Assembly (NCBI RefSeq): GCF_057098645.1
Contig: NZ_CM169472.1
Reading direction: 5' to 3' (one strand)
DNA: 64,000 bases
The notes under the pieces are model-generated. The model searched no databases and had not been told where the DNA came from. It was given only the letters and a program-made list of their open reading frames with translations. Position 1 is the first letter of the stretch; every line of letters starts with the position of its first letter. This document shows, in pieces, positions 31,701-52,798 of this stretch. Made by a program: the position numbers and the translations under genes.

Positions 31701-32148
31701 CTTTATTGCTTTTATGAACCATCGTGCACATATCGATCGTCGGCTGGCTCCGATTGCGAATATGTTACTTACATATAGTGAGAGCCTACCAACCGGTTGT
31801 GATGTATTGCCAACTGTTAGTCGTGAGCAGTTTAATGAAGCTAAACAGATGCTATTAAGGAACCCCGACAGCTTTGGGCGTATCAGTATCTTCCCTAAAG
31901 AACTTTGGTCTAGTGCTATTACTCCAGAGTTAAAATCTGTTTTTAATAAGCTTTGGATTGAAGATAAATATCACTCACGGCTTGAAAAACGTTTTAATTT
32001 GATGTTAGTCGCAGCGCTGTTAACCCAAAAAGATAATAACCTGATACATCAACTGTCTGCGCTTTTTGAATTTCACTATCAGCAAGCCCCACAGCAATTA
32101 GGGGTAATCTATCAATATTATTTTGAACAAGCAGGAGTATGTCATTGA
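28789..32148 (+). CDS. Large hypothetical protein (1119 aa), DruH-like by size and position; first gene of a two-gene operon with a giant helicase
   Basis: TTG start with AGGAAGG RBS; no P-loop or other motif recognised; stop overlaps the start of the downstream helicase gene. Confidence 0.5.
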   Translation: MLVKTPVNPLLQWLNMFFSRRSLSGADGRALYAYRCTDTEYESLAELLRTYAPRSYPRTIFISYSDVLFSIYAAEFIRRTHTVGHPKWDTILDSINWKVPYVHRQKLVNDGIRYWKRKIRNLGQASGYLHTLACEGGLPIRMIENESGYLITYFRRIYQALRGQSSQYPAAKIAQELGDTIPVTMQNELVYEIAGEFCETLCRLLSEHPPHSSDPVSALRKLSPDWHLQLPLVLPEANAAEIVRRLLSQSSEIRSASSLQVERIWVDVDDSWYCDARFRFPATMRTEQLTSLFECHIQPEQTRLIISGKWKNGGARLAMLSRYEQQDWRVELLPIAMQKLSGADAMAEISLSLHEGPILLGHTIPKGGYELTEELPWVFEAMNESESQLKLVGMGSVSSRLNALFISLPKNSHLDISGEGEFDIPRLLKNSERSLTKISGVFSVVLHDGAVCTIRTQQLYDSAIEYYIKSTEVELVKSDYPVHRAWPKIGWKKDLQYGIVPEKELFWRSIRSGNNAWYSVASEMPKGQIEVRRIVNDEVLFSGKVVVLPADFDINIIPESAQQGIIMLSGITDTRIDKYSNNEKVTLKSDYSQNECAIYYNSSLMLENTVDLRVSWKDGSNLKLLLPKPVSGGRFVTNDGSVHFDGVASIAHLHGIDAELLTISCAGRGYLNIELLDENPVAEKFRYLHADLPLLSGRNDKLQQISLYENYNLLNAMLACAWNSNSTLCVDFYSDRFGKDKATLNIKRYDGSFIEHDQGLLVDIKNSVVFPANRIDELVVDAISLKNPGLHISLLKKDEFAYDLSALNVQDSPWLIVGKLDGTARIAPVIKWMLPVLQTNDLLLNALCEADPEQRKKNFNELIFEIDNNPLQNYCCLLTEYIKKYKMNNGLSLLDLDLFRGISSNYRVVVQLLISSCLSGDSDTIYDIQEELPFSWGWIPVSIWKDVFQKCWTYLEKQINDKTLALHILQPFIAFMNHRAHIDRRLAPIANMLLTYSESLPTGCDVLPTVSREQFNEAKQMLLRNPDSFGRISIFPKELWSSAITPELKSVFNKLWIEDKYHSRLEKRFNLMLVAALLTQKDNNLIHQLSALFEFHYQQAPQQLGVIYQYYFEQAGVCH

Positions 32149-35100
32149 TGGACGTTCAGCAACTGCATTATGCGCCACTTCTAAATCAGCTTCATCAGCG
32201 TGCGGTGAGGTCGGTGGTAAGTCAGTTGGCATTGCGGAGCAAGTCGTTGACTCATTATCTGGAATCACAATATTTTCAGCCTCCCGGTCAGGAGGGGTCA
32301 CTGCTTGCAGACCCGGTATTCGAAAGTACATTCGGCTGGATGCCTGCGGATGAAACAATGGAGGATTTGCGGGACAAGCTGATCTCCAGCCCGCTGGTTG
32401 ATGCATTGAGCAAAGCGCCAGTGCCATTTCGTCATCAACTTACTGCGTGGCGAACGATTCTGGAAGACAAAAAATCCTTGTTAGTGAGCAGCGGTACGGG
32501 ATCCGGGAAAACAGAATGCTTTATGGTACCGGTTCTGGAAGATCTTATTCGTCAGCAAAAATCGACCCGCCAGTCACTAACAGGGACACAAGCTATTTTC
32601 TTGTATCCGTTAAATGCATTAATTAACAGCCAACAGGAGCGGCTTCGCGAATGGACGCGCGGATTTAAGGGGAAAATACGCTTCGCGCTATATAATGGCG
32701 AAACCCGGCATACCAAATACGAAATTCAGGAAGATCAGTTGAAAGTACCTGAACAAGCTTTGAGTCGGGAAGCCATTTATGAAGCACCACCTTCCATCAT
32801 GGTGACGAATACCACCATGCTGGAATATATGCTGATTCGTCGTAAAGATGCCCCAATCATCGAAAAGTCTCAGGGGATGTTAAAGTATATCGTCCTGGAT
32901 GAAGCCCATAGTTATATTGGTTCTCAGGCTGCTGAGTTAGCGCTGCTTTTACGTCGTGTTATGCAGGCTTTCAATGTTGGACCCGGCACAGATAAACCTG
33001 TGCAGATTATCGCGACCTCTGCCACTATTGGTGAAGACTCTCCTGAAGGTAATAAGGAGCTTGCTAAATTTGTCGCTGATCTCGCGGGCGTTACAGAACG
33101 TGATGTCAAAGTGGTTCGCGGTTATCGACAAATACCGCGGGTATCGGAGTCGCTGATTCGTCATGAATACCCCACATCTTTAACTTCTCTTAAATCCCTG
33201 AGCCCTCAGGATCTTTACCAACAGCTTTGTCATTACCGTGTGGCCCAGCAATTGCGTCAGGCGTTAACTCATCCCGGACGGCAGGCAGTACGTTTGAGTG
33301 AGTTGCTCAATGTTGCCAGAAGAACCTGGCCAGATATTAATCACCGTGAGCTACTGCAACTCCTCGATCTAATGGCAAGATCGCGAGAAGGTGAACTGGC
33401 TTTTACGCCATTACGTATGCATGGGTTTATCAGAACACTGGCGGGTCTATGGGCATGTTCAAACAAACAATGCTCACATAAAGCACATGAATTAAATCAG
33501 AGTGACTGGCCATTTGGTCAGGTATGGTTTGAGCAGCGCCAATATTGTGACTGTGGAGCGCCGGTATTTGAAGTTTTACGTTGCTCCGGGTGTGGTTCAG
33601 CTTATTTGTCTGCCAAAGAGGAGATGCGCGGTGATGGAACGAACTGGTTGGTAGCGCAACCAGCCGCTGCCGAAGTGGATGAGTTTGCTCTTGATGTAGA
33701 TGTTTATTCTGAAGATGAAGACAACGACGAATTAGACAATAACTCTCAATTTGATCGTCTGATTGCGAGCGATGGTGAAAAATATATCATTTCACTGGAA
33801 GAAACGACGGCGGGGAAAATTGATAGTGAAGCGCAAAAGCACTATGAAATAAACCTGTTAAGACCGGAATCTCGAGGTGAGGGACGCAATAACTCCTTTG
33901 CTTGTGTTTGCTGTGGTGACACTCAACGGAAAAATAATCCTTTATTCCGTCCGCTTCGGCTCGGCGCGCCCTTTTTTTTAAATGAAATTATTCCTACTCT
34001 GCTGGAGTTTTCTCCATTACCGCAAACAAGAGAAGAGCAGTTAGGACCGTTTAATGGTCGACGCTTGCTCACCTTTACGGATTCGCGTCAGGGTACCGCT
34101 CGCATTTCAGCCCGCTTACAGCAGGATGCCGATAAAGCGACGTTGCGAGCTCTTTGTTACCAGGAACTGGCAAATATTACAGAGCCTTCAGCAAAACTCA
34201 GCCCGGCACACTGTGCACTGTTAGAGAAAGTTATTAGCCAGTTTTCTGTCCTCCCTTTAAAAAATTCCATCGACGCGCTGAAAAAAGCGATGGCTGCGAA
34301 TGAGGAGCTTAGCCCGACGGACATTCAGGCACTTAAAATTATTGAGCCGATGGTGAGTTCCTTAAGCACGGAGCATGCTGAAGCGATGCAAATACTTCAG
34401 GCTAACTCTGGCAATCAGCAGAAGAAAACCATGTCATGGCAAACGCTGTCTGAACAGCTGGTTGGCAGTGTGGACCTTGCCGATAGAATGAGAGGCAGTT
34501 TTAAAGAATTGTCTGGGCTTGATCTTACTAAACAACAGTTTGCAGATTTTTGTTTATACAGCGAGTTTGGTCGCCGCCCTAAAAATGCCTGGACCCTCGA
34601 AAGTCTGGGTCTGGTAGCCATTCACTATCCATTCATTGATAAAGTTACAACCTGCCCGCAGGACTGGAAGACATTATTACCCGATCCCGATAAGCAATTA
34701 GCGGAATGGCGTAATTTATTGAAGATTACTCTTGATTTCTTTATCCGTGAAAACAGTGCCGTTTTTTACGAAAACGAGCAATACCCTCGCTGGATGGGGG
34801 CACGTTTCCCGGTAAAAATGCTCCAGGGGCCAGATAAAAAAAACAAAGGGCAGAAACGTGATCAACTTTGGCCACAAATACGCGATCGCCATTATAACCG
34901 GGTCATTAAGCTATTAATCGCAGTCTTTCCGGCAATACAACCTGAGCAGGCTCACTGGAAATCGTTAGTTAACCACTTAATGATTGAGGTCTGGGATGCA
35001 ATTCGACCCTGCTTACGTCAGTTTGAGTCGGGTTATCAGCTGGATATTAAACAACAAGCTGAATTTTACAGTCCAAAGCAAGTGTGGCGTTGCCCCTATA

Positions 35101-38100
35101 CTCGACGTGCGTTAGACGTCACGTTGCTGGGATACTCTCCGTATTTGCCGGGTAGCAAAGAAATTGCACCTGAAAAAGCAGTGTTGATTGAAATGCCTGA
35201 GCTTCCTGTACGTCACTGGCGTTTGTCTGGTGGTGGAGAAATCGCCCGAGAAGAACGTCTGGAGTGGCTGGAAAGTAATGCGCTGATTCAACATGCCCGC
35301 GAGGAAGGATTATGGTCTACTCGCAGCGACCGACTGGCCCTGAAAGATAGCTGGTATCGTCTGGAGGAACACTCTGCGCAGAGAACGCCTGAGCAGAACC
35401 AGTTTAATGAAAAACAATTTAAGTCAGGCAAAGTTAATGTGCTGAACTGTTCCACGACCATGGAGATGGGGGTGGATATTGGTGGTATGAGTTTGGTGGC
35501 AATGAACAACGTTCCTCCAGCGCCGGCAAATTATTTGCAACGTGCAGGTCGCGCGGGGCGTCGTGGAGAGAGTGCATCTGCTGCCATTACGTTATGTAAA
35601 AACACGGCGCATGGAATGGAGGTATTCAAAGACCCCCTCTGGGCGTTCAACACTACTGCCAGTGCGCCACGGGTTCGTTTTGGGAGCAGTAGCATTGTTC
35701 AACGACATGTTAATGCCCAGGTTTTAGGTCTGTTTTTACGAGCTGAAGTTCCTGATGCGACAAAACTGAGTTGCAAATGGTTCTTTGAAGGTGATGAGAG
35801 CCAGTGTCTTCGTTTTCTTCATTGGTTAAATCACCAGGCCGATGAGCTGGCGGATAAACTTAAACGCCTTACTCAGGGAACCGTCCTGATGTCATTGACG
35901 GCAACCCAGCTCTTGACCCGCACACAAGCAATGATGCAGCAGGTTGATATCCGCTGGAGAAGCCAACTTGCGATACTGTTGGAAAATATCGAAGCGTTGA
36001 AGGCGGATAACAGCGCGTGGGAAGAAACGCCAGCAGGTAAAGCCATCGCTTATCAGCTTCGTGATTATCGCGGTGCATATCTGTTTTCTAAACTCATTAG
36101 TGAAGCGTTCCTGCCGGGGCATGGTTTCCCGGTTGGCGTAGTCAATTTCAATTATCTGACGGCAGATGAGCTGGAAAAACGTCGCGCAATAAAAGCCACT
36201 CAGGCTGACCCTAATGAAGGGGGAGAAAGCTTTTCTCGTCGTATTGAAAAATTGCCCAGCCGTGATTTGCCTACAGCATTACGCGAGTATGCGCCTGGTG
36301 CAGATGTGGTATTGGGCGGAAAAGTATATCGTTCCTCGGGCATTATGCTTGGCAAGGTGCTTGCCAGCGGGCAGGAGCTGTCAGGCGATCATCATATTCC
36401 GTGGTTCTGGCATTGCCGTAAATGTGGTGCGGGGGCAACCAGTACTACCCATCCTGTCGAATGTAGTCACTGCAAAGCGGATATACAGCAACTTGATGTG
36501 AAGCGTTATTTACAGCCTGTTGGTTTTGCGACAGATATTCGTTATCAGGCACATAATGATGTATCCATGCCTGCACAACTTCCCTGGAAAGATCCACGTG
36601 TTCTTGTACCGTCTTCGGTGTGGGTTTCTTTACCCGATGCTGGGCTAGGACGTTACCGTTTTAGCCATAGTGGGGAATTGTTCCACTTCAGTGAAGGGGA
36701 ATTTGGGCACGGCTACGCAATTTGCCTCTCATGTGGTCGGGCAGAATCTCAAACTCAACCCCAGCGTACCCCTGAAAATCTAAAGAACCCAGAGCGGGAA
36801 AATACGCATTACCTGTTGCGAGGGGGCAGTAACGATCGTCAGGGGAGCAATAAATTGTGCCACGGTCATGTGCATAAAGATCTGTGGTTGGGGTATAGCA
36901 GTCGTACAGATATGGTTGAGCTGCAACTTAATGATGATAATGGCCTGTTGATCCGTGATGAGGTTGCCGCGCGTTCCCTTGCGGTCGCTTTGCGTGAAGG
37001 GTTAGCGCATAAATTGGGTATCGAAAATACTGAGCTGGGCGTGACGACGCAGCAAGCGCGCGATATCAATGGCTATACCGGATATTCCATCTTCATATAC
37101 GACAATAATGCGGGTGGTGCAGGTTATGCAGTGCAATTGATCGACCATTGGGCTGATGTCTTTAATTACGCCAGAAAATTGCTCGATTGCAGTTGCGATA
37201 AATTTTGTCACCACTGCTTGCTCAGCTACGACAGTCAGCATTATGTCAACAGATTAGATCGTCACCATGCATTAACCCTGCTTACCAATGTACGGTTGCA
37301 GCGACTTAACCTCGCGCCAGAATATCAGTACTTCGGCGATGGTAGCCGGGTTGAAACTAACCCTCTGAGTTTACGTATTGCGCAATGCCTGAACAGCGAG
37401 ATTTATGACTCCTGCTCGCTGGTTCTTGCGGGGCCGCAGGAACAGTGGGACTTTGCCCAATGGCCATTATTTAAAGAGTTGCTCCAGTTTGCCTCCTCCG
37501 GTGGGAATGTTGAGTTGCTGGTGGCCACGCCGCTGGAAAACTTAACTGATAGCTCCAGACATCAGCTTTCCGCGTTGGCGGCGATGCCGGGAGGACGCTT
37601 ACAAGTGAAATCCATTGCCACTGCGCAACTCATGCAAGGAAAGGGGCGCTGGCTTGCGCAGGTGACTCGCGAAGGGCAAAGCCAACAGTGGGCCGCAGAC
37701 GACAGCGCTACCGTTGCCCCTGGTGAATTATGGGGACAAAGTGCGTCTTCACCAGTAGTGACACTTAAAGGAACGTCCGGAAAAACCTTCTCGGGTCAGA
37801 CCTTAAGTGCAGAAGATTTACTGCCCGCCTTACCCACCGGGGCGGTGCGCATCAATCTCTGTGAACAACTGGACGGGCCGCTGGAAGGTTTTGGTTCGCG
37901 TTTCTGGTCGTTAGTCACGCAACAGCACGCTGGCTGGAAGCAGGCATTTACCCGCCACAAAGAGATAACGCATGTTGAGTACAGCGATCGTTATCTTAAT
38001 AGCCCATTCACGGCGCGTTTGTTAGGTGAAATCTTAACCGAGCTGGTTGAACAGGGAATGGCGGAACGCGCCAGCCTCACTGTTTGCGTCAAAAAATTGG

Positions 38101-38462
38101 ATTACAACTCTCGCCAACACGACGCTCTCTATAACGCGTGGCTTAATGAGGAAGATCGTCAGCAGGTTGTGACCACTTTACTTGAAGAAGGATATCTGGG
38201 GCCTGCGTGGCCGGGAGCAATTAGCTGGTTAACGGGGGATAACCAGAGTACGGAGCATGGACGAGAACTGACAGTCACCTTCAGCGATGGCAGTCAGCAT
38301 TATGTCCTGCTCGACATGGGGCTTAGCTACTGGCGCTGTATTGAAGATACCTTCTTTGATTTTGCCCTGCGAGTACCGCAGCAAGTTGAACGGCTGGCAA
38401 ACACGCGAGCGCGAGCTGTTGCCCCGGGTAATGACCTTAGGAGTTATATTATCGCTGGATAA
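32148..38462 (+). CDS. Giant DEAD/DEAH-box helicase with C-terminal Cys-rich (DUF1998-like) region; DruE-like
   Basis: About 2100 aa; motif I SSGTGSGKTECF, motif II VLDEAHSY, motif III TSAT, motif VI QRAGRAGRRGE at about aa 1130, cysteine clusters CRKCGAG..CSHC and CDKFCHHC. Start ATG 32148 (AGGAG 10 nt upstream); an in-frame ATG at 32139 is alternative. Confidence 0.75.
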   Translation: MDVQQLHYAPLLNQLHQRAVRSVVSQLALRSKSLTHYLESQYFQPPGQEGSLLADPVFESTFGWMPADETMEDLRDKLISSPLVDALSKAPVPFRHQLTAWRTILEDKKSLLVSSGTGSGKTECFMVPVLEDLIRQQKSTRQSLTGTQAIFLYPLNALINSQQERLREWTRGFKGKIRFALYNGETRHTKYEIQEDQLKVPEQALSREAIYEAPPSIMVTNTTMLEYMLIRRKDAPIIEKSQGMLKYIVLDEAHSYIGSQAAELALLLRRVMQAFNVGPGTDKPVQIIATSATIGEDSPEGNKELAKFVADLAGVTERDVKVVRGYRQIPRVSESLIRHEYPTSLTSLKSLSPQDLYQQLCHYRVAQQLRQALTHPGRQAVRLSELLNVARRTWPDINHRELLQLLDLMARSREGELAFTPLRMHGFIRTLAGLWACSNKQCSHKAHELNQSDWPFGQVWFEQRQYCDCGAPVFEVLRCSGCGSAYLSAKEEMRGDGTNWLVAQPAAAEVDEFALDVDVYSEDEDNDELDNNSQFDRLIASDGEKYIISLEETTAGKIDSEAQKHYEINLLRPESRGEGRNNSFACVCCGDTQRKNNPLFRPLRLGAPFFLNEIIPTLLEFSPLPQTREEQLGPFNGRRLLTFTDSRQGTARISARLQQDADKATLRALCYQELANITEPSAKLSPAHCALLEKVISQFSVLPLKNSIDALKKAMAANEELSPTDIQALKIIEPMVSSLSTEHAEAMQILQANSGNQQKKTMSWQTLSEQLVGSVDLADRMRGSFKELSGLDLTKQQFADFCLYSEFGRRPKNAWTLESLGLVAIHYPFIDKVTTCPQDWKTLLPDPDKQLAEWRNLLKITLDFFIRENSAVFYENEQYPRWMGARFPVKMLQGPDKKNKGQKRDQLWPQIRDRHYNRVIKLLIAVFPAIQPEQAHWKSLVNHLMIEVWDAIRPCLRQFESGYQLDIKQQAEFYSPKQVWRCPYTRRALDVTLLGYSPYLPGSKEIAPEKAVLIEMPELPVRHWRLSGGGEIAREERLEWLESNALIQHAREEGLWSTRSDRLALKDSWYRLEEHSAQRTPEQNQFNEKQFKSGKVNVLNCSTTMEMGVDIGGMSLVAMNNVPPAPANYLQRAGRAGRRGESASAAITLCKNTAHGMEVFKDPLWAFNTTASAPRVRFGSSSIVQRHVNAQVLGLFLRAEVPDATKLSCKWFFEGDESQCLRFLHWLNHQADELADKLKRLTQGTVLMSLTATQLLTRTQAMMQQVDIRWRSQLAILLENIEALKADNSAWEETPAGKAIAYQLRDYRGAYLFSKLISEAFLPGHGFPVGVVNFNYLTADELEKRRAIKATQADPNEGGESFSRRIEKLPSRDLPTALREYAPGADVVLGGKVYRSSGIMLGKVLASGQELSGDHHIPWFWHCRKCGAGATSTTHPVECSHCKADIQQLDVKRYLQPVGFATDIRYQAHNDVSMPAQLPWKDPRVLVPSSVWVSLPDAGLGRYRFSHSGELFHFSEGEFGHGYAICLSCGRAESQTQPQRTPENLKNPERENTHYLLRGGSNDRQGSNKLCHGHVHKDLWLGYSSRTDMVELQLNDDNGLLIRDEVAARSLAVALREGLAHKLGIENTELGVTTQQARDINGYTGYSIFIYDNNAGGAGYAVQLIDHWADVFNYARKLLDCSCDKFCHHCLLSYDSQHYVNRLDRHHALTLLTNVRLQRLNLAPEYQYFGDGSRVETNPLSLRIAQCLNSEIYDSCSLVLAGPQEQWDFAQWPLFKELLQFASSGGNVELLVATPLENLTDSSRHQLSALAAMPGGRLQVKSIATAQLMQGKGRWLAQVTREGQSQQWAADDSATVAPGELWGQSASSPVVTLKGTSGKTFSGQTLSAEDLLPALPTGAVRINLCEQLDGPLEGFGSRFWSLVTQQHAGWKQAFTRHKEITHVEYSDRYLNSPFTARLLGEILTELVEQGMAERASLTVCVKKLDYNSRQHDALYNAWLNEEDRQQVVTTLLEEGYLGPAWPGAISWLTGDNQSTEHGRELTVTFSDGSQHYVLLDMGLSYWRCIEDTFFDFALRVPQQVERLANTRARAVAPGNDLRSYIIAG

Positions 38463-38582
38463 ATAATTGCTCCCCTGGGGATATCTTCCAGGGGAGTTGA
38501 CCCAGCTCACTTTTTAATAATTTTTGTTTGAAAATCATGCGCAATTTATGCGCATTCCCTCCCATTTTGTCACTTTGCCGGG

Positions 38583-38615: not shown

Positions 38616-38685
38616 ATCGCAGTGTGCCGCGCCACATTTTTCAGGATGACGTTACCGCCACTGCCCCAAATAGACAGAAAAACCG

Positions 38686-44500: not shown

Positions 44501-46457
44501 GGGTGATTACGAGCCGGAATTTGTGCTGCGTAAGCTGAGCGCCTCGAAGCTGGCAACGTTGCGTGTTGATACCTTTAACCAGATCCCGGCACTGGAAGCG
44601 GCCTGGCGCAGCGAGTATGAAGGCTGTGAAGGGATGCAAAACTTCCTCAATGCGCAGCAGAACTACCCGGTACTAGCAGGACAAAAAGCGAATTTGTATA
44701 AATGTTTTCTACCTCTGGGGTGGCGCTTAGGGGCGCAGAAAGGTGTCGTAGGGTTCCTGCATCCGGAAGGAATTTATGAAGACCCGAAAGGGGGAAAACT
44801 GCGTGGGGCGGTCTATCCAAGGTTAAGAGCTCATTTTCAGTTTCAAAATCAGCATATGCTTTTCCCTATCGGTGACAGGGTTAAGTTTAGTATTAATATC
44901 TACACCGCGTTTGTAAGTGATCATATTGGCTTCATTAGTATTGCAAACTTATTCTCGGCAAAAACGATTGAACTGTGTTTGTCGCATGATGGAACTGGAG
45001 AAGTGGGTGGTATTAAAGATGACGAAACCGACTCATGGAACGAATCAGGACACCAAAGCCGCATATTGAAAGTATCGTTAGAGCGGCTTTCCTTGTTTGC
45101 TAATTTGTATGATGAGCTAGGTATACCTGCGATTGAGGCCAGATTACCTGCTCTTCATGCGGATCACTTGGTGTCTGTGCTTGAGAAATTTGCTAAGCAG
45201 CCAACTAGATTGAGTGACTTAGAAAAAGACTATTATTCAACCCAACATTGGAACGAAGTTAATGCTCAGGATGATGGGATAATCAGACGCGAAACCCAAT
45301 TCCCGGAAGACGCATCCCAATGGATTTTGTCTGGTCCGCACTTCTATGTTGGAACACCGCTTTATAAAACGCCGAGAGAAATTTGCACAGAGAAAGGACA
45401 TTATGACTGCCTGGACTTGCTAACTCTGCCCGACGACTATCTGCCGCGCACTAACTATATTCCAGCATGTGATGCACAGGAGTATGCAAAGCGCACCCCA
45501 CGGGTTTCGTGGAAAGAACAGGATGAAGACGAGCCGAGGAAGGTGACGGATTATTATCGTCATATAAATCGAAGAGCCATTGGTTGTTCTTCGGAGCGAA
45601 CTGCTATAGGTGCAATTATACCCAAAGATGTCGCTCATATAGATGGGGGATTCTCATTAACTTTCAAAGACCCTAAACAACTGGTGATTTTTAATACCAG
45701 CTTCAATTCCTTACCTTTTGACTTTGTAATTAAAACAACGGGTAAAAGCGATTGTCGGGCGGAATTAGTAAAAATTTTACCAATGCTTTCAGATATAGGG
45801 ACAAGGCTATTTGCTCGGGGCTTAGTTAATAATGCAATAACAGCGCATTACTCCGATCTCTGGCAATCCTGCTACACCCCAGACTTCAACACCCAGCGTT
45901 GGAGCCGCGATCTCCCGCTGCTGCCCCAGGATTTCTTCGCCAATCTGACCCCAGAGTGGCAGCGTAACTGCGCCTTACGCTCCGACTACAGCCGCCGTCA
46001 GGCGCTGGTGGAAATCGACGTACTGGTGGCGCAGGCGCTGGGGTTAACCCTCGAAGAGCTGCTTACCATTTACCGTGTACAGTTCCCGGTTATGCGCCAG
46101 TACGAAGCGGACACCTGGTACGATCAAAACGGTCGTATTATCTTTACCCCAAGCAAAGGGCTGGTGGGCGTTGGCTTGCCGCGTACCGCGCGTAAAGCTG
46201 ACCTGAAAAACGGCTTTGTCTTTAACGTCGACAGCCCGGACTGGACCGGCGGTGACTGCACCGATCAAGCCATCGGCTGGGATGATGTCAAACATCTTAA
46301 AACTGGTACCGTCAGCGTCACCTTTGATGACTATACCCGCAGCGACGAAGGCGAGCGCCGTACCGTCACCTGGCAGGCACCGTTTATCAAGCCGGATCGC
46401 GAAGACGACTACAAAGTGGCCTGGGCGTTCTTTGCACAAGATAAGGAGAGCGCCTGA
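41547..46457 (+). CDS. Large N6-adenine DNA methyltransferase (Eco57I/DrmMI/PglX-like)
   Basis: 1636 aa; SAM-binding motif CEPAMGSAAFL, catalytic NPPW (LMLGNPPWLKV); start 2 nt after the SNF2 stop. Confidence 0.8.
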   Translation: MALVGINNENEFYSNHYLGEVFTSDIRDVLEPWIAKENAAREAERAAREQGKDVEPGYRAPWNQFNSLATEFFRKLAEHEKQRQIPQRLADQRNRWQPLLKALGYEITPQIQMLDDDTPLPVLARYNSTDGSPWLWIVEAHDQEEGTLDPLALSLLTAQFPADTDKHKRDSLRKKANGEYRSWQDLLSTAVFTQNEPPRFVLLLGNRQLLLLDRTKWAQNRLLRFDFEEILSRRETDTLKATAVLLHKDSLLPGSGAPYLDSLDDNSHKHAFGVSEDLKYALRESIELLGNEAMHYLIDRGLANYTGNRAVDPDELSRECLRYMYRLLFLFYIEARPELGYAPMTAKTYLQGYSLETLRDLEMIPLTSEEDRNGRYFHDSLNMLFKLVREGYNGGVKMQSDLESGDRITIHSHQFSVPRLESHLFDANNTRILNRVVFRNETLQQIIQAMSLSRPAKGRFNRRGRISYRQLGINQLGAVYEALLSYRGFFASEDLYEVKKAGEEFNELETGYFVSKDEIGKYHEDEKVYEKDGSLRIHRKGSFIYRMAGRDREKSASYYTPEVLTRSLVKYALKELFKEQIDPISDPHAKADAILNLTVCEPAMGSAAFLNEAINQLAEAYLFHKQQAEGRRIPQDRYTQELQRVKMYIADNNVFGVDLNPVAVELAEVSLWLNAISGDAFVPWFGYQLHCGNSLVGARRQVFNKSELTYKKAKDPSWLNSEPVELAMNTPREETQIFHFLLPDGGMANYSDKTVKQRYPDDFKALDSWRKEFIKSFAGHEIADVQRISEKVEALWNTYRQQLKAERLKTADSYPVWPAENSEQTRSSLSSKDETFSGRLEDNSAYQKLRWVMDYWCALWFWPIDKADELPDRGTWLFEIETLLDGIVITEKVTEVAEHTTGDLFAEEGLLREESSLFSVAGRLKTEVLFRHLPRLAIVDALRKQHRFFHWDLEFCDLFAERGGFDLMLGNPPWLKVEWQEAGVLGDYEPEFVLRKLSASKLATLRVDTFNQIPALEAAWRSEYEGCEGMQNFLNAQQNYPVLAGQKANLYKCFLPLGWRLGAQKGVVGFLHPEGIYEDPKGGKLRGAVYPRLRAHFQFQNQHMLFPIGDRVKFSINIYTAFVSDHIGFISIANLFSAKTIELCLSHDGTGEVGGIKDDETDSWNESGHQSRILKVSLERLSLFANLYDELGIPAIEARLPALHADHLVSVLEKFAKQPTRLSDLEKDYYSTQHWNEVNAQDDGIIRRETQFPEDASQWILSGPHFYVGTPLYKTPREICTEKGHYDCLDLLTLPDDYLPRTNYIPACDAQEYAKRTPRVSWKEQDEDEPRKVTDYYRHINRRAIGCSSERTAIGAIIPKDVAHIDGGFSLTFKDPKQLVIFNTSFNSLPFDFVIKTTGKSDCRAELVKILPMLSDIGTRLFARGLVNNAITAHYSDLWQSCYTPDFNTQRWSRDLPLLPQDFFANLTPEWQRNCALRSDYSRRQALVEIDVLVAQALGLTLEELLTIYRVQFPVMRQYEADTWYDQNGRIIFTPSKGLVGVGLPRTARKADLKNGFVFNVDSPDWTGGDCTDQAIGWDDVKHLKTGTVSVTFDDYTRSDEGERRTVTWQAPFIKPDREDDYKVAWAFFAQDKESA

Positions 46458-49400
46458 TGCTGCCGTCCGTTGTCAGTCGGCAGGTCGCCGACAGCGTTGC
46501 CGCCTTTTTACGGGCGGCGTTCCCGCTAAACAGCCCGCTGTTTAACGGTGAGAATAACGATAATGTCTCAATGCTGGAGCAATTTCTGGCCCAGCCCGAA
46601 ACGCTGCTGAAAGGACCATACCTTTCCGCCCAGTTGCCGTTTCGTAAAAGTGACTTACCACTGAATTTCTTCCCTAATCTGACGCTGCCGTTCCCGCCGC
46701 ACGCGCATCAGGCCCGGGCATTTCAGCGTCTGGGAAGCGACGCGCCACAGCCGACACTGGTCGCTACCGGTACCGGCTCCGGTAAAACAGAATGCTTTAT
46801 GTTCCCGCTGCTCAACCACTGCGCGGGCGCGTCACATGCCGGGGTTAAAGCGATTATCATCTACCCGATGAACGCCCTGGCAACCGATCAGGCCAGCCGT
46901 TTCGCCAAAACCATCGCCAGCGATCCACAACTGCATGGCAAGGTGACCGTCGGCTTGTTTGTCGGCGACAGCGAAATCGAACCCAGCAAGAAAATGTCGG
47001 CAGAAAAGGTCATTACCTGCAAGCACACGCTGCGCGAAAGCCCGCCGGACATCCTGTTGACCAACTACAAAATGCTCGACTACCTGCTGATGCGCCCTGG
47101 CGATCAGCCGCTCTGGCGTTACAACCAGCCCGGTTCATTGCGTTACCTGGTCGTGGATGAATTGCATACGTTTGATGGCGCGCAAGGGTCGGATCTGGCC
47201 TGTCTGGTGCGACGTCTGAAGCATCACATAGGTGTGGATAACCAACGATTCGCCTGCGTCGGGACATCAGCTACCGTCGGCGACGAACTGGGGCAACTGC
47301 TCGATTACGCAAAAACAATCTTTGACCAGCCGTTTACCGATGACGCCGTTATTCGCGAAGATCGCTACACGGCAGCGGAGTACTTGCAGGATTATGCCAT
47401 TGCGTACAGTCAGTATCCGGGGCCGGAGGCCGCTTCGGCCCTGGACCCGCAGAGTTACTCTACCCCGGTAGCGTATCTCAACGGGCAAATCCCTTTGTGG
47501 TTCCCCGACAGCGATTTGCAACTCCCGGACGATCTGGAGAGCGACGACGGGCGTGAAAAGCGTATTGCGCTGGGGTCACTGTTACGCCGCCACAGCGTGA
47601 TGCATGTCTTACTCCATGATCTGCAAGGCGGGATCCTCTCTGAGCGAGAGTGTCTGGAAAATCTCCAGGTCATGCTGGCAGAAAGCGCCGACCATGCCCG
47701 ACGCGTGCTGCAAAGCATTCTGGCGCTGATCGCGCAGGCACGTCTCGAAGTACCGGAAACGGAACACGATCGTCAAAAACGTCTCCAGGCGAAGAAAGCG
47801 CGTCCGGTGCTGCCGTTTGTGCAACTGCGCTCCCAGTTGTGGCTTCGTGAGATGCGTCGTCTGGTCGCCAGCGTGGCGAAAACGCCGCGACTGGTGTTTG
47901 CCGATGATGTGGCGGTGGAAGACCGCGAACACTATTTGCCGGTTATCCACTGCCGTGACTGCCATGCAACCGGCTGGGCCAGCCTGCGTCATGGGCAAAG
48001 CGTTCAGCTGGAAACAGACCTCGACGGCATTTATCGCCAGTTCTTTGAAAAAGGGCGCTCCATCGTCCTCGCTTTCCCGGATAATAACGAAAAAGCGGTC
48101 AGTGGCGCACACCAGAAACTGTGTCCTACCTGTCTGAAACTTAACCGACAGTCCAGCGTCCAGTGTGGACATTGCGGTCATACGGAACTGTTGCAGGTAC
48201 TGATCCCGGATATGCTCAAAGAGCGTAAGGACGAGCTGGAGTTTGCTAATGAATGCCCGTACTGCAACAGCAAACAGGGGATTTCGATCCTGGGGTCACG
48301 GGCTGCCAGTCTGTCGGCGGTGATGATTCACCAGCTTTATGGCAGCCAGTTCAACGAACATAAAAAGCTGATTACGTTTTCTGACTCGGTACAAGACGCC
48401 GCGCATCGTGCCAGCTTCTTTACTGCCCGAACCTGGCCGCTGATGATTCGTGGGCAAATCGCCAGTGTTCTTGGCGAAAAAGAGACATTACCGCTGGATG
48501 CGTTCGCGGCGCGTGTTTGCCAACAAACGCGTGAACGTTCACCGGACGATGCTCATTTTGCAGCGAACTTCATCGCACCAAATATGCAGTGGCTGAATGA
48601 TTATCAGACGCTGAAAAATGAAGGCAAACTGGCGGAGAACTCCGATCTGCCGGAGCTGGTTTCCCTGCGCCTCGACTGGGAGGTGTACAGCGAATTTACC
48701 CTGCGCGCGCGTATCGGACGTACGCTGGAAGCCACCGGTTATGCCGTTGCCGGAGTGGATAAAGATCGCTTTAATCCGGCAATTACCGCCCTGCATCAAC
48801 AGCTTTGTGAAGAGCTGGGTGATGAGATGTCCGGTGTGAGCGTCGAGCAGGTAGCGCACCTGGCGCTGGGGGTTATCTGGTATCAACGCCAGGCCGGGGC
48901 CGTTATGCATCCGGCGTTCGAAAGTTATCGCCGTGATGGCACGACCTTTATGATGACGCAAAAAGAGCGTACATCGCGCTATATGCCTTCTATCGGTCCG
49001 AAAACGCGTAAACCGGCTTATGCGTCGTTTGAAAAAATTAATGGTTTCCATCGCCTGATTGGCGCGAAGTCTAACCCCAGTTGGTATCAGCATTGGATCA
49101 ATCGCACGCTGAGTAACGGCAATAATCTGTTTATCAGTAGCGTTGCGGAAACAGTGTTACGACGCCTGTTTACGGCGTTGAAAATAGCCGGAGTAGTAAA
49201 AGATTTTGACACCAAAGGGCGTGAAGCCTGGGGACTGGTGCCTTCGGCGCTGGTGGTGAGCCGTGACGTCGTTCAGCTTAATTGCTCATGTTGCCGTGAG
49301 GTTGTCCGGGCTCCGGCCGATCAAGGCTGGCAGTGGCGTAATGCGCCTTGTCTCTCTTTACGTTGTGAAGGTCGTTACCTAGAAGTCGACAATATGGCGA

Positions 49401-52400
49401 CCTGGCGTTGGGAGAACATGGACATCGCGCGCGTGCAGGGCGCAGAACACACGGGGCTGCTTAGCCGTGAAGATCGCGAAGCCACCGAAAAATCGTTCTA
49501 CCGCGGCAACCAACCGTGGAATATCAACCTGTTGTCGGCAACACCGACGCTGGAGATGGGTATTGACGTTGGGGATCTTTCCACCGTTTTACTCTGTTCT
49601 GTCCCACCTGCTCAGGCCAACTACTTGCAACGTATTGGTCGCGCCGGTCGTAAAGATGGTAACGCGTTAAACATTACCGTGGCAGAAGGGAACCCGCACG
49701 ATCAGTTTTTCTTTGAAGAACCACTGGAGATGATGCAGGGCCAGGTGCAGGCTCCTGGCGTCTTCCTCAATGCAACGGCTATTCTCGAACGCCAGCTGGC
49801 AGCTTTTTGTATGGATAACTGGGTGAAAACCGGTGTACCAGAATCCGCTATCTGTAAAAACGTCAAACAGATGCTGGATGAGCTGGAGTTCGGGCGTAAA
49901 TCGGGTTTTCCGTATAACTTACTGCGATATATCGAACAGCATCATGCGGAGATTGCTGCGCAATTTACGGCAATCTTCCCCGATCTTGCCGCAGAAACTC
50001 GCCAACAGCTGTTGTCTTATCTTCAGGGCGCGCCAGGACAACGCTCGCTGGTGCAGCGTATCGAAGAAGCGTTAAAACTGCTGGTGGAAGATCGCAAATC
50101 TTTGCGCTCACGCATCGATAAACTCAAGCGCAGTATCGATAAACTGGAGAACGCGCCGCGCGATCAAAACTTTGATAGCGATATGCGCGAGTTAACTTCG
50201 GAACGGCAGGCGCTGATGGCGCTGGTCAATCAAATCAACAATAAGCAAACGCTGAATTTCCTCACGGATGAAGGTCTGCTGCCTAACTACGCCTTCCCGG
50301 AAGCCGGTATTACGTTACGTTCTGTGCTCTGGCGGCGTAAAGAAGGCGGGGAAGCACGTGAATATCAAAACACCACTTTCGAATATGAACGCCCGGCATC
50401 AACGGCGCTGGCTGAGCTGGCTCCGCTGAATAATTTCTATGCCGGTGGGCATAAAGTTGAAATTGAGCAGATAGACCTGAAGGTCTCTGAGCCGGAGAAC
50501 TGGCGTATCTGTAGCCACTGTAACTACAGCGAAAATATCGACCAGACGGGCGACCAGCATAAATATTGCCCGAAATGTGGCACACCGGGGTGGGCCGATG
50601 CCGGACAAAAAACCACGCTGCTGAAACTTCGCCAGGTTTATGCCCGCGCCAGCGCACGTGATAGCCAGATCAGCGACGAGAGCGACAGCCGTGAACCTGC
50701 TTTCTTCCAGCGTCAGCTATTGGTTAGTTTCGAAAAAGAAGATGTATCGGCGGCATACGCGATTGAGGAAGGCGAAGTTCCGTTTGGTTTTGAATTTTTA
50801 AGCAAAGTCACCCTGCGGGATATCAACTTCGGCAAAATGGCGGATGATGCCAATGAGTTGATGATTGCCGGAGAAGCGAAGAAGCGAACCGGGTTTAAAG
50901 TTTGCCTCGGGTGCGGCATGGTGCAGCGTCCTCGCGATCATGAACCACGTCATGATTTGAGCTGCAAATATCGCACGGAACCGGAAAAGGCGAAGTTCGA
51001 AGATTATCTCTACCTCTATCGCCAGCTGGAGTCAGAAGCGTTGCGTATTCTGCTCCCGGTAAGCAGTTACAGTAATGACCGTGTCGTGGAGGCTTCTCTT
51101 GGGGCGGCGATCCAGCTCGGTCTTAAACATTACTTCAAGGGGAATGTCGATCACCTGAAAGGCGTTGTGTACCGCGAGCCGGAAAATGAAGGCGAATCCT
51201 GGCGGCAGTATCTGGTGATTTACGATACCGTCCCGGGGGGGACTGGTTCTCTTAAAGAACTGATGCGCACTCCCGACAATTTGCTGAAATTACTTGAACT
51301 GGCCTATCAGGCAATAGTGGAATGCAGTTGCAACAATGATACGCATAAAGATGGTTGTTATCGTTGCGTTTACGCTTACCGTGACCGTGGGCGCATGAAG
51401 TATGTCTCCCGCGATCAGGCGCGTCTCTTGCTGGCGAAAATTTTGCAGGCAAGAGATTCGATACGGGTAATTGATTCCATCAAAAACATTTCCCTCGAAG
51501 CCATGATGGGCAGTGAGCTGGAAAAACGGTTTATTAGCTGCCTGCAAGAAAATAAAAACCTGATTGTCAGTCGCAGTTACGCGCATCAGGGCGCTGGGTG
51601 GATTATTAACACCCGCAGCGAACCGATGATGAGCTGGCATCTTAAAGCTCAGGTGGATTTAGGCGCTAAAGAGGCGGTGGGGATCCCTTGTCGCCCGGAT
51701 TACGTGCTATATCCGCTTATGCAGTCTGATGCCATTAAACCGGTGGTTATTTTCCTTGATGGCTTTGCGTTCCACAAAAATAGCGTCGCAGAGGATGTGC
51801 AAAAACGCCAGGCGATTCGGGATAGCGGTAATTTCTGGGTGTGGACAGTCACGTGGGCCGATCTCAAAGAGCCTGGGCTTAAACATGTTCAGGATGTCCT
51901 GGGACTTGGGCATAACCCGGATATGAAACAGCCTAAGTTTTATAACCTGTTTCATGATACCAACTTTGCGGCCCTTGAAGCGTCGTTCCGGGAACGCAAC
52001 AGTTTTGCACTGCTGCTGGATTATCTCGCCGATCCGGGCGGAAGAACGCAGTTATGGCAGAGAATGGCTGCTGCACATGCCTGGGTGTGGTTGGATGTGA
52101 AGAAGTCACAGGACGCGGGAACGAAACAAAAGTATGCCTATGAAATGCAGGAAAACGCGCCAGCCTGGCGGCTAGCAGAGCTTTTGCCAGACGAACCGTT
52201 TGTCTTTGGTGGTTTACTCGATAGCTGTAACTCATCGCAGCAATTTATTGAGCTGGCTTCGGTGTTGCCACAACAAGCCATTAAACCGACGACCAGCGTC
52301 GCACAAATGCGCAGCTGGCTGCGTTTGCATATCTGTTTTGACGATCGCTATACGCAGGATGACGGTTATGAAGCGGGACTCAATGGCTTCTGGCGACTGG

Positions 52401-52798
52401 TAAACCTGTTACAGTTCCTGCCGGATATGACCTTTACCAGCCGTAAAGCCGTGCATTTACCGCAGGAAAGCGTTGACACTAAAGTTTCGGCAACGCCAGA
52501 GGCAGTACCAGAGACTGATGAGAGTTGGGCTGAGATTATTGAGTTTGGCTTATTAAGCGCTGAAGAGATCGCGTTGCTTCAGTCTCATTCTCTCTCTGCG
52601 CCGACTCTCGGCTACGAATTGCAAAATGATGAAGGTGAAATTATTGCGGAAGCCGATCTCGCCTGGCCATCACAAAAATGGGCATTGATTATTGATAATC
52701 AAGAATTTATTCCATTATTCACAACCAGGGGTTGGCACGTTGCATTCGGGCCAATTGACGAAAATACATTGCAACATCTGTCCGGAGGTGACAAATGA
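46457..52798 (+). CDS. Second giant DEAD/DEAH-box helicase with C-terminal Cys-rich (DUF1998-like) region; DrmA/DrmB-fusion-like or DruE-like
   Basis: 2113 aa; motif I ATGTGSGKTECF, motif II VVDELHTFDG, motif VI QRIGRAGRKDG at about aa 1060, zinc-ribbon-like CSHCNYS..CPKCG and CSCNN..CYRC; ATG overlaps the MTase stop (TGATG). Confidence 0.75.
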   Translation: MLPSVVSRQVADSVAAFLRAAFPLNSPLFNGENNDNVSMLEQFLAQPETLLKGPYLSAQLPFRKSDLPLNFFPNLTLPFPPHAHQARAFQRLGSDAPQPTLVATGTGSGKTECFMFPLLNHCAGASHAGVKAIIIYPMNALATDQASRFAKTIASDPQLHGKVTVGLFVGDSEIEPSKKMSAEKVITCKHTLRESPPDILLTNYKMLDYLLMRPGDQPLWRYNQPGSLRYLVVDELHTFDGAQGSDLACLVRRLKHHIGVDNQRFACVGTSATVGDELGQLLDYAKTIFDQPFTDDAVIREDRYTAAEYLQDYAIAYSQYPGPEAASALDPQSYSTPVAYLNGQIPLWFPDSDLQLPDDLESDDGREKRIALGSLLRRHSVMHVLLHDLQGGILSERECLENLQVMLAESADHARRVLQSILALIAQARLEVPETEHDRQKRLQAKKARPVLPFVQLRSQLWLREMRRLVASVAKTPRLVFADDVAVEDREHYLPVIHCRDCHATGWASLRHGQSVQLETDLDGIYRQFFEKGRSIVLAFPDNNEKAVSGAHQKLCPTCLKLNRQSSVQCGHCGHTELLQVLIPDMLKERKDELEFANECPYCNSKQGISILGSRAASLSAVMIHQLYGSQFNEHKKLITFSDSVQDAAHRASFFTARTWPLMIRGQIASVLGEKETLPLDAFAARVCQQTRERSPDDAHFAANFIAPNMQWLNDYQTLKNEGKLAENSDLPELVSLRLDWEVYSEFTLRARIGRTLEATGYAVAGVDKDRFNPAITALHQQLCEELGDEMSGVSVEQVAHLALGVIWYQRQAGAVMHPAFESYRRDGTTFMMTQKERTSRYMPSIGPKTRKPAYASFEKINGFHRLIGAKSNPSWYQHWINRTLSNGNNLFISSVAETVLRRLFTALKIAGVVKDFDTKGREAWGLVPSALVVSRDVVQLNCSCCREVVRAPADQGWQWRNAPCLSLRCEGRYLEVDNMATWRWENMDIARVQGAEHTGLLSREDREATEKSFYRGNQPWNINLLSATPTLEMGIDVGDLSTVLLCSVPPAQANYLQRIGRAGRKDGNALNITVAEGNPHDQFFFEEPLEMMQGQVQAPGVFLNATAILERQLAAFCMDNWVKTGVPESAICKNVKQMLDELEFGRKSGFPYNLLRYIEQHHAEIAAQFTAIFPDLAAETRQQLLSYLQGAPGQRSLVQRIEEALKLLVEDRKSLRSRIDKLKRSIDKLENAPRDQNFDSDMRELTSERQALMALVNQINNKQTLNFLTDEGLLPNYAFPEAGITLRSVLWRRKEGGEAREYQNTTFEYERPASTALAELAPLNNFYAGGHKVEIEQIDLKVSEPENWRICSHCNYSENIDQTGDQHKYCPKCGTPGWADAGQKTTLLKLRQVYARASARDSQISDESDSREPAFFQRQLLVSFEKEDVSAAYAIEEGEVPFGFEFLSKVTLRDINFGKMADDANELMIAGEAKKRTGFKVCLGCGMVQRPRDHEPRHDLSCKYRTEPEKAKFEDYLYLYRQLESEALRILLPVSSYSNDRVVEASLGAAIQLGLKHYFKGNVDHLKGVVYREPENEGESWRQYLVIYDTVPGGTGSLKELMRTPDNLLKLLELAYQAIVECSCNNDTHKDGCYRCVYAYRDRGRMKYVSRDQARLLLAKILQARDSIRVIDSIKNISLEAMMGSELEKRFISCLQENKNLIVSRSYAHQGAGWIINTRSEPMMSWHLKAQVDLGAKEAVGIPCRPDYVLYPLMQSDAIKPVVIFLDGFAFHKNSVAEDVQKRQAIRDSGNFWVWTVTWADLKEPGLKHVQDVLGLGHNPDMKQPKFYNLFHDTNFAALEASFRERNSFALLLDYLADPGGRTQLWQRMAAAHAWVWLDVKKSQDAGTKQKYAYEMQENAPAWRLAELLPDEPFVFGGLLDSCNSSQQFIELASVLPQQAIKPTTSVAQMRSWLRLHICFDDRYTQDDGYEAGLNGFWRLVNLLQFLPDMTFTSRKAVHLPQESVDTKVSATPEAVPETDESWAEIIEFGLLSAEEIALLQSHSLSAPTLGYELQNDEGEIIAEADLAWPSQKWALIIDNQEFIPLFTTRGWHVAFGPIDENTLQHLSGGDK

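Follow-up and report, generated by a model that had tools for sequence, protein, structure and literature searches.

Two separate, evolutionarily related anti-phage systems lie side by side in the window analysed here, a stretch of 64,000 nucleotides from contig NZ_CM169472.1 of RefSeq assembly GCF_057098645.1. Each is built around a giant SF2 helicase of the YprA/MrfA family (DUF1998/MZB) with a C-terminal nuclease. One is Druantia type III (druH-druE, 28789-38462) and the other ARMADA type II (armA-armB-armC-armD, 38686-54909), a reading to which we assign a probability of about 0.93 and for which we found no contradicting evidence. Together with a divergent Zorya type II operon, they form a conserved defence array, O-island 172, of EHEC-type E. 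coli, which here is located downstream of a P4-like satellite at tRNA-Leu. The initial annotation, made from the sequence alone, had correctly picked out the two helicases and sensed that they are related modules. It had not identified the arrangement as one that is named, experimentally characterised and common; the finding is already known.

The array begins with the Zorya type II operon zorE-zorB2-zorA2 (25104-28634, − strand), which is recognised from the RefSeq annotation of an identical stretch together with the ORFs, is transcribed divergently from druH, and is the third member of the conserved array. On the + strand, druH (28789-32148) is a 1119-aa ORF with a TTG start that encodes a protein of the YjiT/STY4851 family, the Druantia type III partner of DruE. 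It overlaps by 10 nt with druE (32139-38462, + strand), which encodes a YprA-family helicase-nuclease of 2107 aa. RefSeq places the druE start at 32148, an internal Met that gives a protein of 2104 aa; the structure was solved with the 2107-aa product, whose start is at 32139. There follow, again on the + strand, armA (38686-41544; 952 aa, a SNF2/RapA/BrxHII-like helicase), armB (41547-46457; 1636 aa, a PglX/type IIG-like N6-adenine DNA methyltransferase), armC (46457-52798; 2113 aa, a second YprA-family helicase-nuclease) and armD (52795-54909; 704 aa, a UvrD/GajB-like helicase extended at its N-terminus by ~240 aa), all assigned to ARMADA type II.

The description of these genes as adjacent operons is reasonable. 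The genes inside each unit overlap or abut, and a 223-bp spacer separates the druE stop from the armA start. Directly 3′ of druE, the spacer contains a hairpin (38469-38497, + strand) whose stem is 12 bp long (−21.2 kcal/mol, z = −2.6); promoter-like sites are present in or near the spacer at 38567-38594 and 38671-38700. The hairpin is a possible terminator and may mark the boundary between two transcription units, although its role as a terminator is stated tentatively because the T-run is not immediately beside the stem. This stretch of genes matches E. coli O145:H28 chromosomes with 100% identity. The defence array could be mapped onto strain RM9872, but the upstream part of the window could not; the P4-like satellite that follows tRNA-Leu in the window is absent from that strain, and positions 4000-28800 are covered to at most 78% by any complete genome.

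The first two genes display the composition of Druantia type III, in which a full-length giant helicase of the DruE3 type has a co-oriented DruH immediately upstream. The PADLOC profile DruE3 (PDLC00037) matches DruE over its full length (aa 9-2105) with 2182 bits, and DruH3 (PDLC00041) matches DruH, also over its full length, with 2555 bits. DruH additionally scores 987 bits against the NCBIfam profile YjiT_fam, for which the cut-off is 150. The solved structure 9tu7_Y matches DruE with 4899 bits over aa 3-2107. This entry, PDB 9TU7, is a cryo-EM structure of DruE from E. coli EDL933 (Himpich et al. 2026), and the DruE of the window is, at the level of sequence, essentially identical to it.

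Within DruE we see the motifs GTGSGKT at residue 119, DEAH at 254 and QRAGRAGR at 1134, with CxxC pairs at 1426/1442, 1529 and 1690. The approximate layout of the protein is RecA1 at aa 95-329, an insert at 330-1074, RecA2 at 1075-1206, an OB-CON-MZB segment at 1207-1716 and a PLD-like region at 1717-2107. A Pfam scan of the C-terminal half returned Helicase_C and MZB (aa 1615-1694, E = 6e-12), and for the exact E. coli homologue a DEAD domain has been recorded. No PLD domain was returned by Pfam in aa 1101-2107. However, tandem PLD-like C-terminal domains have been described for DruE (Bell et al. 2025, PMC12458937; Li et al. 2025, 10.1101/2025.09.22.677730; 2026 Druantia III preprints), and the motifs DRY (1950) and HxR (2040) in our protein resemble PLD-pocket residues reported for P. 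aeruginosa DruE. Given its near-identity to EDL933 DruE, the window protein very likely has two such domains, of which the last would be the active one.

The second unit has the gene order of ARMADA type II: a SNF2/BrxHII-like, a PglX-like, a YprA-like and a GajB-like UvrD protein are encoded by four abutting or overlapping + strand ORFs, and the helicase core of ArmC is joined to OB-CON-DUF1998 on a single polypeptide. Against PADLOC profiles, ArmA scores 333 bits with DrmD and 201 bits with BrxHII, and against the NCBIfam profile DISARM_DrmD it reaches 350 bits, which is under the cut-off of 610. The best match of ArmB is REase_MTase_IIG (PDLC03614, 931 bits), compared to 191 bits for DrmMI. 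ArmD matches GajB with 124 bits and contains the Pfam domains UvrD-helicase and UvrD_C; where a RelE-like domain was looked for at its N-terminus, only weak matches to ParE_like, YoeB and Gp49 were seen. Eight residues, namely ArmA K136 and D236, ArmB G605 and N971 (the latter in an NPPW motif), ArmC K110 and D234, and ArmD K266 and D454, are identical in position and motif to those that were mutated in the ARMADA system of E. coli NCTC 12900 (Bell et al. 2025, PMC12458937).

ArmC itself carries GTGSGKT at residue 105, DELH at 234 and QRIGRAGR at 1058, with CxxC motifs at 1352/1371, 1483 and 1634. Its approximate layout comprises RecA1 (aa 80-302), an insert (303-994), RecA2 (995-1129) and OB-CON-MZB (1130-1660), followed by a Vsr-like PD-(D/E)xK domain at ~1700-1805, a middle subdomain at ~1820-2000 and a ZorE-like domain at ~2019-2110. 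Pfam finds DEAD, Helicase_C and MZB (aa 1549-1638, E = 6e-13) in this one ORF, and the model of the C-terminal region is Vsr/PD-(D/E)xK-like, as expected of a predicted-active Vsr-type nuclease, which in ARMADA type II often has inactivated domains after it. The PADLOC profiles DruE1-4 give partial matches only (204-347 bits, with DruE3 at 347). Full-length, collinear ArmC-type relatives make up at least 150 clusters at 50% identity, come from diverse samples and show 37-52% identity, and a UvrD-type gene comes next after armC in the relatives examined. The profile scores and these relatives place ArmC in the ARMADA clade, related to yet distinct from DruE. The variants seen in other taxa are an SACS/NOV_C gene inserted between armB and armC, the order B-x-A-C-D, and an armC-armD pair that lacks armA/armB upstream.

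The two giant + strand ORFs, of 2107 and 2113 aa, are present with the motifs that had been claimed for them, at spacings close to those first estimated. From Walker A to the DExH box there are 135 residues in DruE and 129 in ArmC (~125 had been given), from there to motif VI 880 and 824 (~900), and from motif VI to the CxxC cluster ~292 and ~294 (~300); the modules, placed 8 kb apart, are separated by 7,994 bp from the druE stop to the armC start. BLASTP aligns the RecA1 domains of DruE and ArmC at 34% identity (E = 3e-30), and the region from RecA2 through the Zn-binding region, ~640 aa, at 23% identity (E = 7e-26). With two 61-sequence profiles as input, hhalign gives a probability of 100% (E = 8.7e-81) over 1769 aligned columns, with ~21% identity. 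This alignment is collinear through the N-terminus, RecA1, the large insert, RecA2 and OB-CON-DUF1998, and fails only in the C-terminal nuclease regions. When regions were tested in isolation, E was 6.6e-17 for OB-CON-DUF1998 and 2.6e-6 for the insert, with control values of 0.0012-0.35. For the second half of the insert by itself the homology was weak (E = 0.027). The full-length alignment also paired ArmC 2020-2101 with DruE 1997-2078 (posterior >=0.5, 2-10% identity), but this pairing is lost in the isolated test, in which the C-termini show no detectable similarity (E = 0.34), so we attribute it to the greedy collinear path and reject it.

Both proteins combine an SF2 DEAD/DExH core with a following four-cysteine Zn domain of the MZB (DUF1998) type, as is characteristic of the YprA/MrfA family, and both match the YprA structure 6znp (E = 1.4e-19 for DruE and 5.4e-20 for ArmC). 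The best solved-structure match of ArmC is DruE, with 166 bits. By these sequence comparisons, DruE and ArmC are real, distant homologues, with similarity far beyond chance. In a profile comparison with DruE and DrmA/DrmB, which the initial annotation had suggested, the first protein is DruE itself and the second scores 347 bits against DruE3 compared to 49 bits against DrmA.

The arrangement had been called unusual, but about one in ten complete E. coli genomes has it. Among 5,426 such genomes, the ARMADA operon is present in 520, DruHE in 505, and the DruE/ArmA junction in 524, which is nearly all carriers of either system. The adjacency is also kept in Photobacterium, where DruE identity is 50%. 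Each system nevertheless occurs without the other elsewhere, a check that the initial annotation had proposed: DruHE stands alone in Methylotuvimicrobium, and ARMADA was seen without an adjacent DruE in another genome. The side-by-side arrangement has been described, and both systems shown to defend and to synergise, by Bell et al. (2025, PMC12458937), who defined ARMADA and the YprA-family relationship, and by Li et al. (2025, 10.1101/2025.09.22.677730), who dissected O-island 172; strong synergy against 16-22 phages was reported. Four 2026 preprints deal with the structures and mechanism of DruE and DruH, and the literature cited here as a whole consists of preprints. Phage defence has been reported for the 99%-identical Druantia III systems of EDL933 and ATCC 8739 (Bell et al. 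2025; Li et al. 2025; 2026 preprints).

Against this background, several other explanations can be weighed. That the shared features are generic SF2 motifs and chance CxxC pairs, with no specific relationship between the proteins, is a reading to which we give no weight at all. Walker A, DExH and motif VI are indeed generic to SF2 helicases, but OB-CON-DUF1998 and the insert each align alone with E-values below those of the controls, Pfam detects MZB/DUF1998 in both proteins, and it is DruE that ArmC matches best among solved structures. Collinear homology thus reaches well beyond the ATPase core, which favours the relatedness first proposed. As to how the pair arose, the initial annotation had offered either a duplicated and subfunctionalised helicase or two independent systems that use the same module. 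A recent local duplication of one gene, followed by sensor/effector subfunctionalisation within a single system, would agree with the near-equal lengths, the same domain order, the collinear homology over ~1,700 residues and the position of the genes 8 kb apart on the same strand. It is barely credible, however, for proteins that share ~21% identity overall, have C-termini without detectable similarity and differ so widely in DruE3 profile score (2182 vs 347 bits). The diversity of the at least 150 ArmC-type clusters means that the DruE/ArmC split long predates the island. In addition, the conserved partners are separate (DruH vs ArmA/B/D), each system is found alone elsewhere, and each defends when cloned or with the other deleted (Bell et al. 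2025; Li et al. 2025). It is therefore the second option that stands: these are two old, separate systems, in different YprA/MrfA clades and with their own operons and partners, that use the same YprA-family helicase with no local duplication. A single obligate six-gene composite machine of DruHE and ArmABCD, for example with DruE-ArmC hetero-oligomers, would account for the junction found in nearly all E. coli carriers of either system, the adjacency kept in Photobacterium, the strong synergy, and a dimerisation domain inside the DruE insert of which ArmC has a diverged form. We consider it very unlikely all the same, since each system protects alone: cloned ARMADA protects against 13/80 phages, DruHE alone protects MG1655, and single-deletion strains keep defence (Bell et al. 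2025; 2026 preprint). The occurrence of each system alone in other taxa, and the spacer with its hairpin and promoter-like sites between them, also argue against such a machine.

A different question is whether the second operon could be DISARM class 1 with fused DrmA-DrmB and a replaced DrmC. The gene content and order are similar (SNF2 helicase, adenine methyltransferase, DUF1998 helicase), ArmA and ArmB match the DrmD and DrmMI profiles, and Li et al. (2025, 10.1101/2025.09.22.677730) called the operon 'DISARM I-related'. However, neither ArmA nor ArmB behaves as a DrmD or DrmMI equivalog, the former scoring 350 bits where 610 are needed and the latter finding its best match in a type IIG profile; and ArmC, as noted, is far closer to DruE3 than to the DrmA profiles. 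Separate DrmA and DrmB genes, a hallmark of DISARM (Bell et al. 2025, PMC12458937), were not found; one 2113-aa ORF carries both helicase and DUF1998. There is also no gene for a DrmC nuclease of the PLD family in 38686-54909, where instead a Vsr-like nuclease is fused to the helicase and the UvrD-like ArmD follows it. Finally, helicases of this kind fall in a clade with Druantia and not with DISARM (Bell et al. 2025, PMC12458937). We therefore set this candidate aside as extremely improbable on the DrmA/DrmB/DrmC criteria and the profile scores, and it has been superseded by the ARMADA literature.

For the two-system reading, the literature on the same or a near-identical protein shows how the Druantia III pair works. 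DruE is a dimeric, ATP-driven 3′-to-5′ DNA helicase that dimerises via a domain within its insert. It is loaded where ssDNA meets dsDNA in replication or recombination intermediates of the phage, and it requires the helicase core, the MZB domain and the PLD-like region at its C-terminus. DruH binds or processes ssDNA as a sensor or licensing partner; defence is direct and non-abortive (2026 Druantia III preprints). These preprints disagree on the preferred DruE substrate, which is a 3′ overhang in the E. coli studies and a 5′ overhang in the P. aeruginosa study, and on the nature of DruH, variously taken to be an exonuclease, a binder of ssDNA regulated by ATP or a protein that has no catalytic domains. 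For ARMADA II, defence is again direct and non-abortive and requires all four genes. ArmA and ArmC must have intact ATPase motifs, ArmB its NPPW motif and ArmD its Walker A motif; an ArmD Walker B mutant is partly active (Bell et al. 2025, PMC12458937). If DISARM class 1 and BREX are a guide, ArmB would mark host DNA. The ArmA translocase and the ArmC helicase would then engage unmarked phage DNA, which ArmC may degrade by means of its Vsr-type nuclease with ArmD assisting. DruE and ArmC descend from a common ancestor with the same insert domains and differ in nuclease (PLD vs Vsr) and partners. They would therefore act by different means on phage DNA intermediates that overlap, in keeping with the reported synergy.

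A closer connection within the island may also be considered. Among 5,027 PADLOC profiles, the last ~90 residues of ArmC have a single match, which is to the C-terminus of ZorE (40% identity, E = 3e-8). ZorE is the Zorya II effector, and its gene lies 20 kb upstream. Every ArmC type II homologue that was examined retains the ZorE-like domain, and no mention of the sharing was found in the main texts of the literature searched. ArmC furthermore keeps a diverged version of the insert region that bears the dimerisation stalk in DruE. The ZorE-like domain could share with ZorE a binding partner or a DNA structure that both recognise, and ArmC and DruE could form mixed assemblies; either, if true, would be a structural basis for synergy. 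That the three systems are physically wired through shared domains, beyond meeting at common DNA intermediates, is nonetheless unlikely in our estimation. The strong resistance of EHEC O157:H7 and O145:H28 strains to phages is explained in large part by the island. This bears on phage therapy and biocontrol, and the island is a textbook case of two related helicase-nuclease systems in synergy, all of it already reported.

Compared with known systems, the druH-druE pair is the same as the Druantia III of EDL933, down to the divergent Zorya II neighbour; nothing substantive differs, and the strain background is O145:H28-like and not O157:H7. The gene order, sizes and domain content of the second unit are likewise those of ARMADA II in E. 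coli NCTC 12900, ATCC 8739 and EDL933 (z5899-z5902), and we found no difference from these copies, in which ARMADA II also lies directly downstream of druE. DISARM class 1 (DrmD, DrmMI, DrmA, DrmB, DrmC) has the same helicase-methyltransferase-helicase order, and probably a methylation-linked restriction logic in common with the window operon. The latter differs in a fused helicase nearer DruE than DrmA, a Vsr-type domain in place of a separate PLD DrmC, the extra UvrD-like ArmD, and an ArmA under the curated DrmD cut-off. With MrfA/YprA of Bacillus subtilis (PDB 6ZNP), both giants have in common a RecA1-RecA2 core followed by an OB-CON-MZB canopy. To this 751-aa plan they add a ~700-aa insert within or beside RecA2, which Bell et al. 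(2025, PMC12458937) describe as BrxA-like, Zn beta-barrel and MarR-like, as well as extra Zn modules and C-terminal nuclease domains.

Six large open reading frames, found by ORF calling, follow one another on the + strand of the window: druH (28789-32148, 1119 aa), druE (32139-38462, 2107 aa), armA (38686-41544, 952 aa), armB (41547-46457, 1636 aa), armC (46457-52798, 2113 aa) and armD (52795-54909, 704 aa). The two giant proteins described in the initial annotation are both present with the motifs listed for them, at residues 119 (GTGSGKT), 254 (DEAH), 1134 (QRxGRAGR) and from 1426 (CxxC pairs) in the 2107-aa protein, and at 105 (GTGSGKT), 234 (DELH), 1058 (QRxGRAGR) and from 1352 (CxxC pairs) in the 2113-aa protein. 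The start previously placed at 32148 is that of RefSeq and yields a 2104-aa protein; translation from 32139 yields the 2107-aa form. The genes druE and armC are separated by 7,994 bp, and the Druantia and ARMADA units are parted by a 223-bp spacer, with a strong hairpin 3' of druE and promoter-like sites. In a published cloning, ARMADA was driven by its own promoters (Bell et al. 2025, PMC12458937).

From sequence comparison, PADLOC and NCBIfam identify the druH-druE pair as Druantia type III, with full-length matches to the PADLOC profiles DruH3 (2555 bits) and DruE3 (2182 bits, the 2107-aa protein), and a match of DruH to NCBIfam YjiT_fam (987 bits). The 2107-aa protein also matches PDB 9TU7, the cryo-EM structure of E. 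coli EDL933 DruE, over its whole length (4899 bits). Its C-terminus carries DRY (1950) and HxR (2040), akin to PLD-pocket residues reported for P. aeruginosa DruE; no PLD domain was detected there by Pfam.

The second operon was at first read as a DISARM class 1 variant, which was replaced by the published definition of ARMADA type II. [quoted passage not shown] 2025, PMC12458937). In the window, the armA product is an SNF2 helicase (DrmD 333 bits, BrxHII 201 bits), the armB product a type IIG/PglX-like methyltransferase (931 bits) and the armD product a UvrD/GajB-like helicase, while the armC product gave only partial DruE matches (347 bits) and DrmA at 49 bits. All eight residues mutated by Bell et al. 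are found at exactly the same positions in the window proteins (ArmA K136/D236, ArmB G605/N971, ArmC K110/D234, ArmD K266/D454). Model-based likenesses of the ArmC C-terminal nuclease region include the restriction endonucleases BsoBI and BstEII, RAP domains, I-Bth0305I and DUF559-like 3hrl; D1748, D1768, G1769, H1773, D1780 and R1784 are invariant, in line with the Vsr-type nuclease reported to be active there. The ArmD N-terminus, for which a RelE-like domain is reported in the literature, gave only weak ParE_like, YoeB and Gp49 matches and a low-confidence model, which did not confirm that domain.

BLASTP aligned the two giants at residues 96-300 of the 2107-aa protein versus 81-277 of the 2113-aa protein (34% identity, E = 3e-30) and at 1077-1718 versus 997-1662 (23% identity, E = 7e-26), the second match spanning RecA2 and reaching far into the Zn-binding region. 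Diverse full-length relatives were collected for each giant. For ArmC, phmmer with a 1,200-residue query against 1.84 billion representatives gave at least 150 clusters, mostly of ~2,100 aa and collinear over the whole query; for DruE, a word-indexed search gave 5,783 matches at E <= 1e-30. When the two resulting 61-sequence MAFFT profiles were compared with hhalign, one collinear alignment was obtained (probability 100%, E = 8.7e-81, 1,769 columns), with confident segments covering, in order, the N-terminal strand, RecA1, nine blocks within the ~700-aa insert (two CxxC sites among them), RecA2 and the whole OB-CON-DUF1998 region, where confident alignment ends at ArmC 1660/DruE 1716. Tested in isolation, OB-CON-DUF1998 gave E = 6.6e-17 and the insert E = 2.6e-6 (ArmC 368-674 versus DruE 355-679), with E = 0.027 for the second half of the insert alone and 0.0012-0.35 for cross-region controls. 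The C-terminal ~400 aa in isolation showed no similarity between ArmC and DruE (E = 0.34). The initial annotation had allowed that only generic SF2 motifs might be shared; this is rejected, because the insert and OB-CON-DUF1998 align beyond the ATPase core and Pfam MZB (DUF1998) is found in both proteins. These alignments make DruE and ArmC genuine, if remote, homologues that differ in their C-terminal modules. In Bell et al. 2025 (PMC12458937) the two fall in one YprA-family clade with common BrxA-like, Zn beta-barrel and MarR-like inserts, and Li et al. 2025 (10.1101/2025.09.22.677730) state their homology, both being DExH helicase-nucleases.

Such homologues could have arisen by duplication within the island, or two independent systems could have recruited the same module; both had been proposed, together with the view that the arrangement is unusual. 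E. coli O145:H28 chromosomes carry the window array at 100% identity. A megablast search of 5,426 complete E. coli genomes (>=80% query coverage, reaching relatives of roughly >=85% identity only) finds the ARMADA operon in 520, DruHE in 505 and the 1.8-kb DruE/ArmA junction in 524, so that in E. coli the two almost always occur together and the arrangement is common, not unusual. These counts match the 426 of 3,792 genomes in Li et al. 2025 (10.1101/2025.09.22.677730), who describe the same nine-gene locus as z5894-z5902 of O-island 172 in EDL933. Outside E. coli, the order DruH, DruE (50% identity), ArmA, ArmB is preserved in Photobacterium rosenbergii, DruHE stands alone in a Methylotuvimicrobium genome, and JALMEW010000002.1 has armB, a 557-aa gene, armA, armC and armD (order B-x-A-C-D) without DruE immediately upstream. 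[quoted passage not shown] What stands is two systems that share one module, each also found without the other.

Outside E. coli the order of ARMADA II genes varies somewhat, as seen at three loci of ArmC relatives (L004, L005, L008): besides the JALMEW010000002.1 order above, a 1662-aa SACS/NOV_C gene is added between armB and armC in CP126972.1, and one metagenome contig has RloB and small genes followed by armC-armD, without armA or armB. E. coli plasmids also carry ARMADA II/Druantia III sequences (23, 17 and 16 places in the ARMADA, DruHE and junction searches, respectively); in one example, a 76.5-kb plasmid record, the junction query matched over 35% only, under a DUF1998 domain-containing protein gene. 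The island's most variable gene is armB (Li et al. 2025, 10.1101/2025.09.22.677730). It is intact in the window (41547-46457, a 1636-aa ORF) and, per RefSeq, a frameshifted, split pseudogene in E. coli RM9872 (L001 18948-23856, NZ_CP028379.1); in that record the ARMADA operon has 2 bases fewer than in the window.

Homology links the last ~90 residues of ArmC (aa 2019-2113, window 52511-52795) with the C-terminal end of the same island's Zorya II effector, ZorE (25104-26207, - strand; ZorE aa 279-335), at 40% identity over 57 aa (BLASTP, E = 3e-8). Against all PADLOC profiles this fragment matches ZorE2 only (E = 5.3e-11), and the pattern PExGxEL...AELAW...K.AV...GW is kept in 26 of 26 aligned ArmC homologues. 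This homology is the one finding here without a counterpart in the texts searched; neither Bell 2025 nor Wu 2026 was found to mention it in the main text.

A tRNA-Leu(CAA) gene at 5923-6007 is followed by low-GC DNA (~6000-24000); its counterpart in the best-matching genome is a P4-like satellite that carries integrase, psu, ogr/delta, alpA, icd-like and primase-helicase genes. In complete E. coli genomes, coverage of window 4000-28800 never exceeds 78%, so the satellite cargo or hotspot region in the window is a different mosaic. An annotated phosphorothioated-DNA-binding restriction endonuclease adjoins zorE beside a nanM fragment (~23700-25000, placed by homology to L001 1093-2281 and to another comparison locus, L003 17143-18331). 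On the other side, armD is followed downstream by a complete nanM-nanC and a truncated nanS, an arrangement that suggests insertion of the defence array into or beside the nanCMS locus.

All of this arrangement had been named, mapped and studied by experiment before. In 2026 preprints on the same protein, DruE is shown to work as a dimer that unwinds DNA 3'-to-5' with ATP and engages junctions containing ssDNA, its helicase core and MZB domain both being required; DruH is assigned ssDNA binding or processing and a role as sensor or licensing factor, and Druantia III defence is direct and non-toxic, although these preprints conflict on substrate polarity and DruH chemistry. ARMADA II needs all four genes for direct, non-abortive protection, as well as the ArmA and ArmC ATPase motifs, the ArmD Walker A and the ArmB NPPW, while an ArmD Walker B mutant kept partial activity; with Druantia III it is synergistic against many phages (Bell et al. 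2025, PMC12458937; Li et al. 2025, 10.1101/2025.09.22.677730). By its anatomy and by comparison with DISARM and BREX, ArmB would mark self DNA, and the ArmC Vsr domain would degrade DNA.
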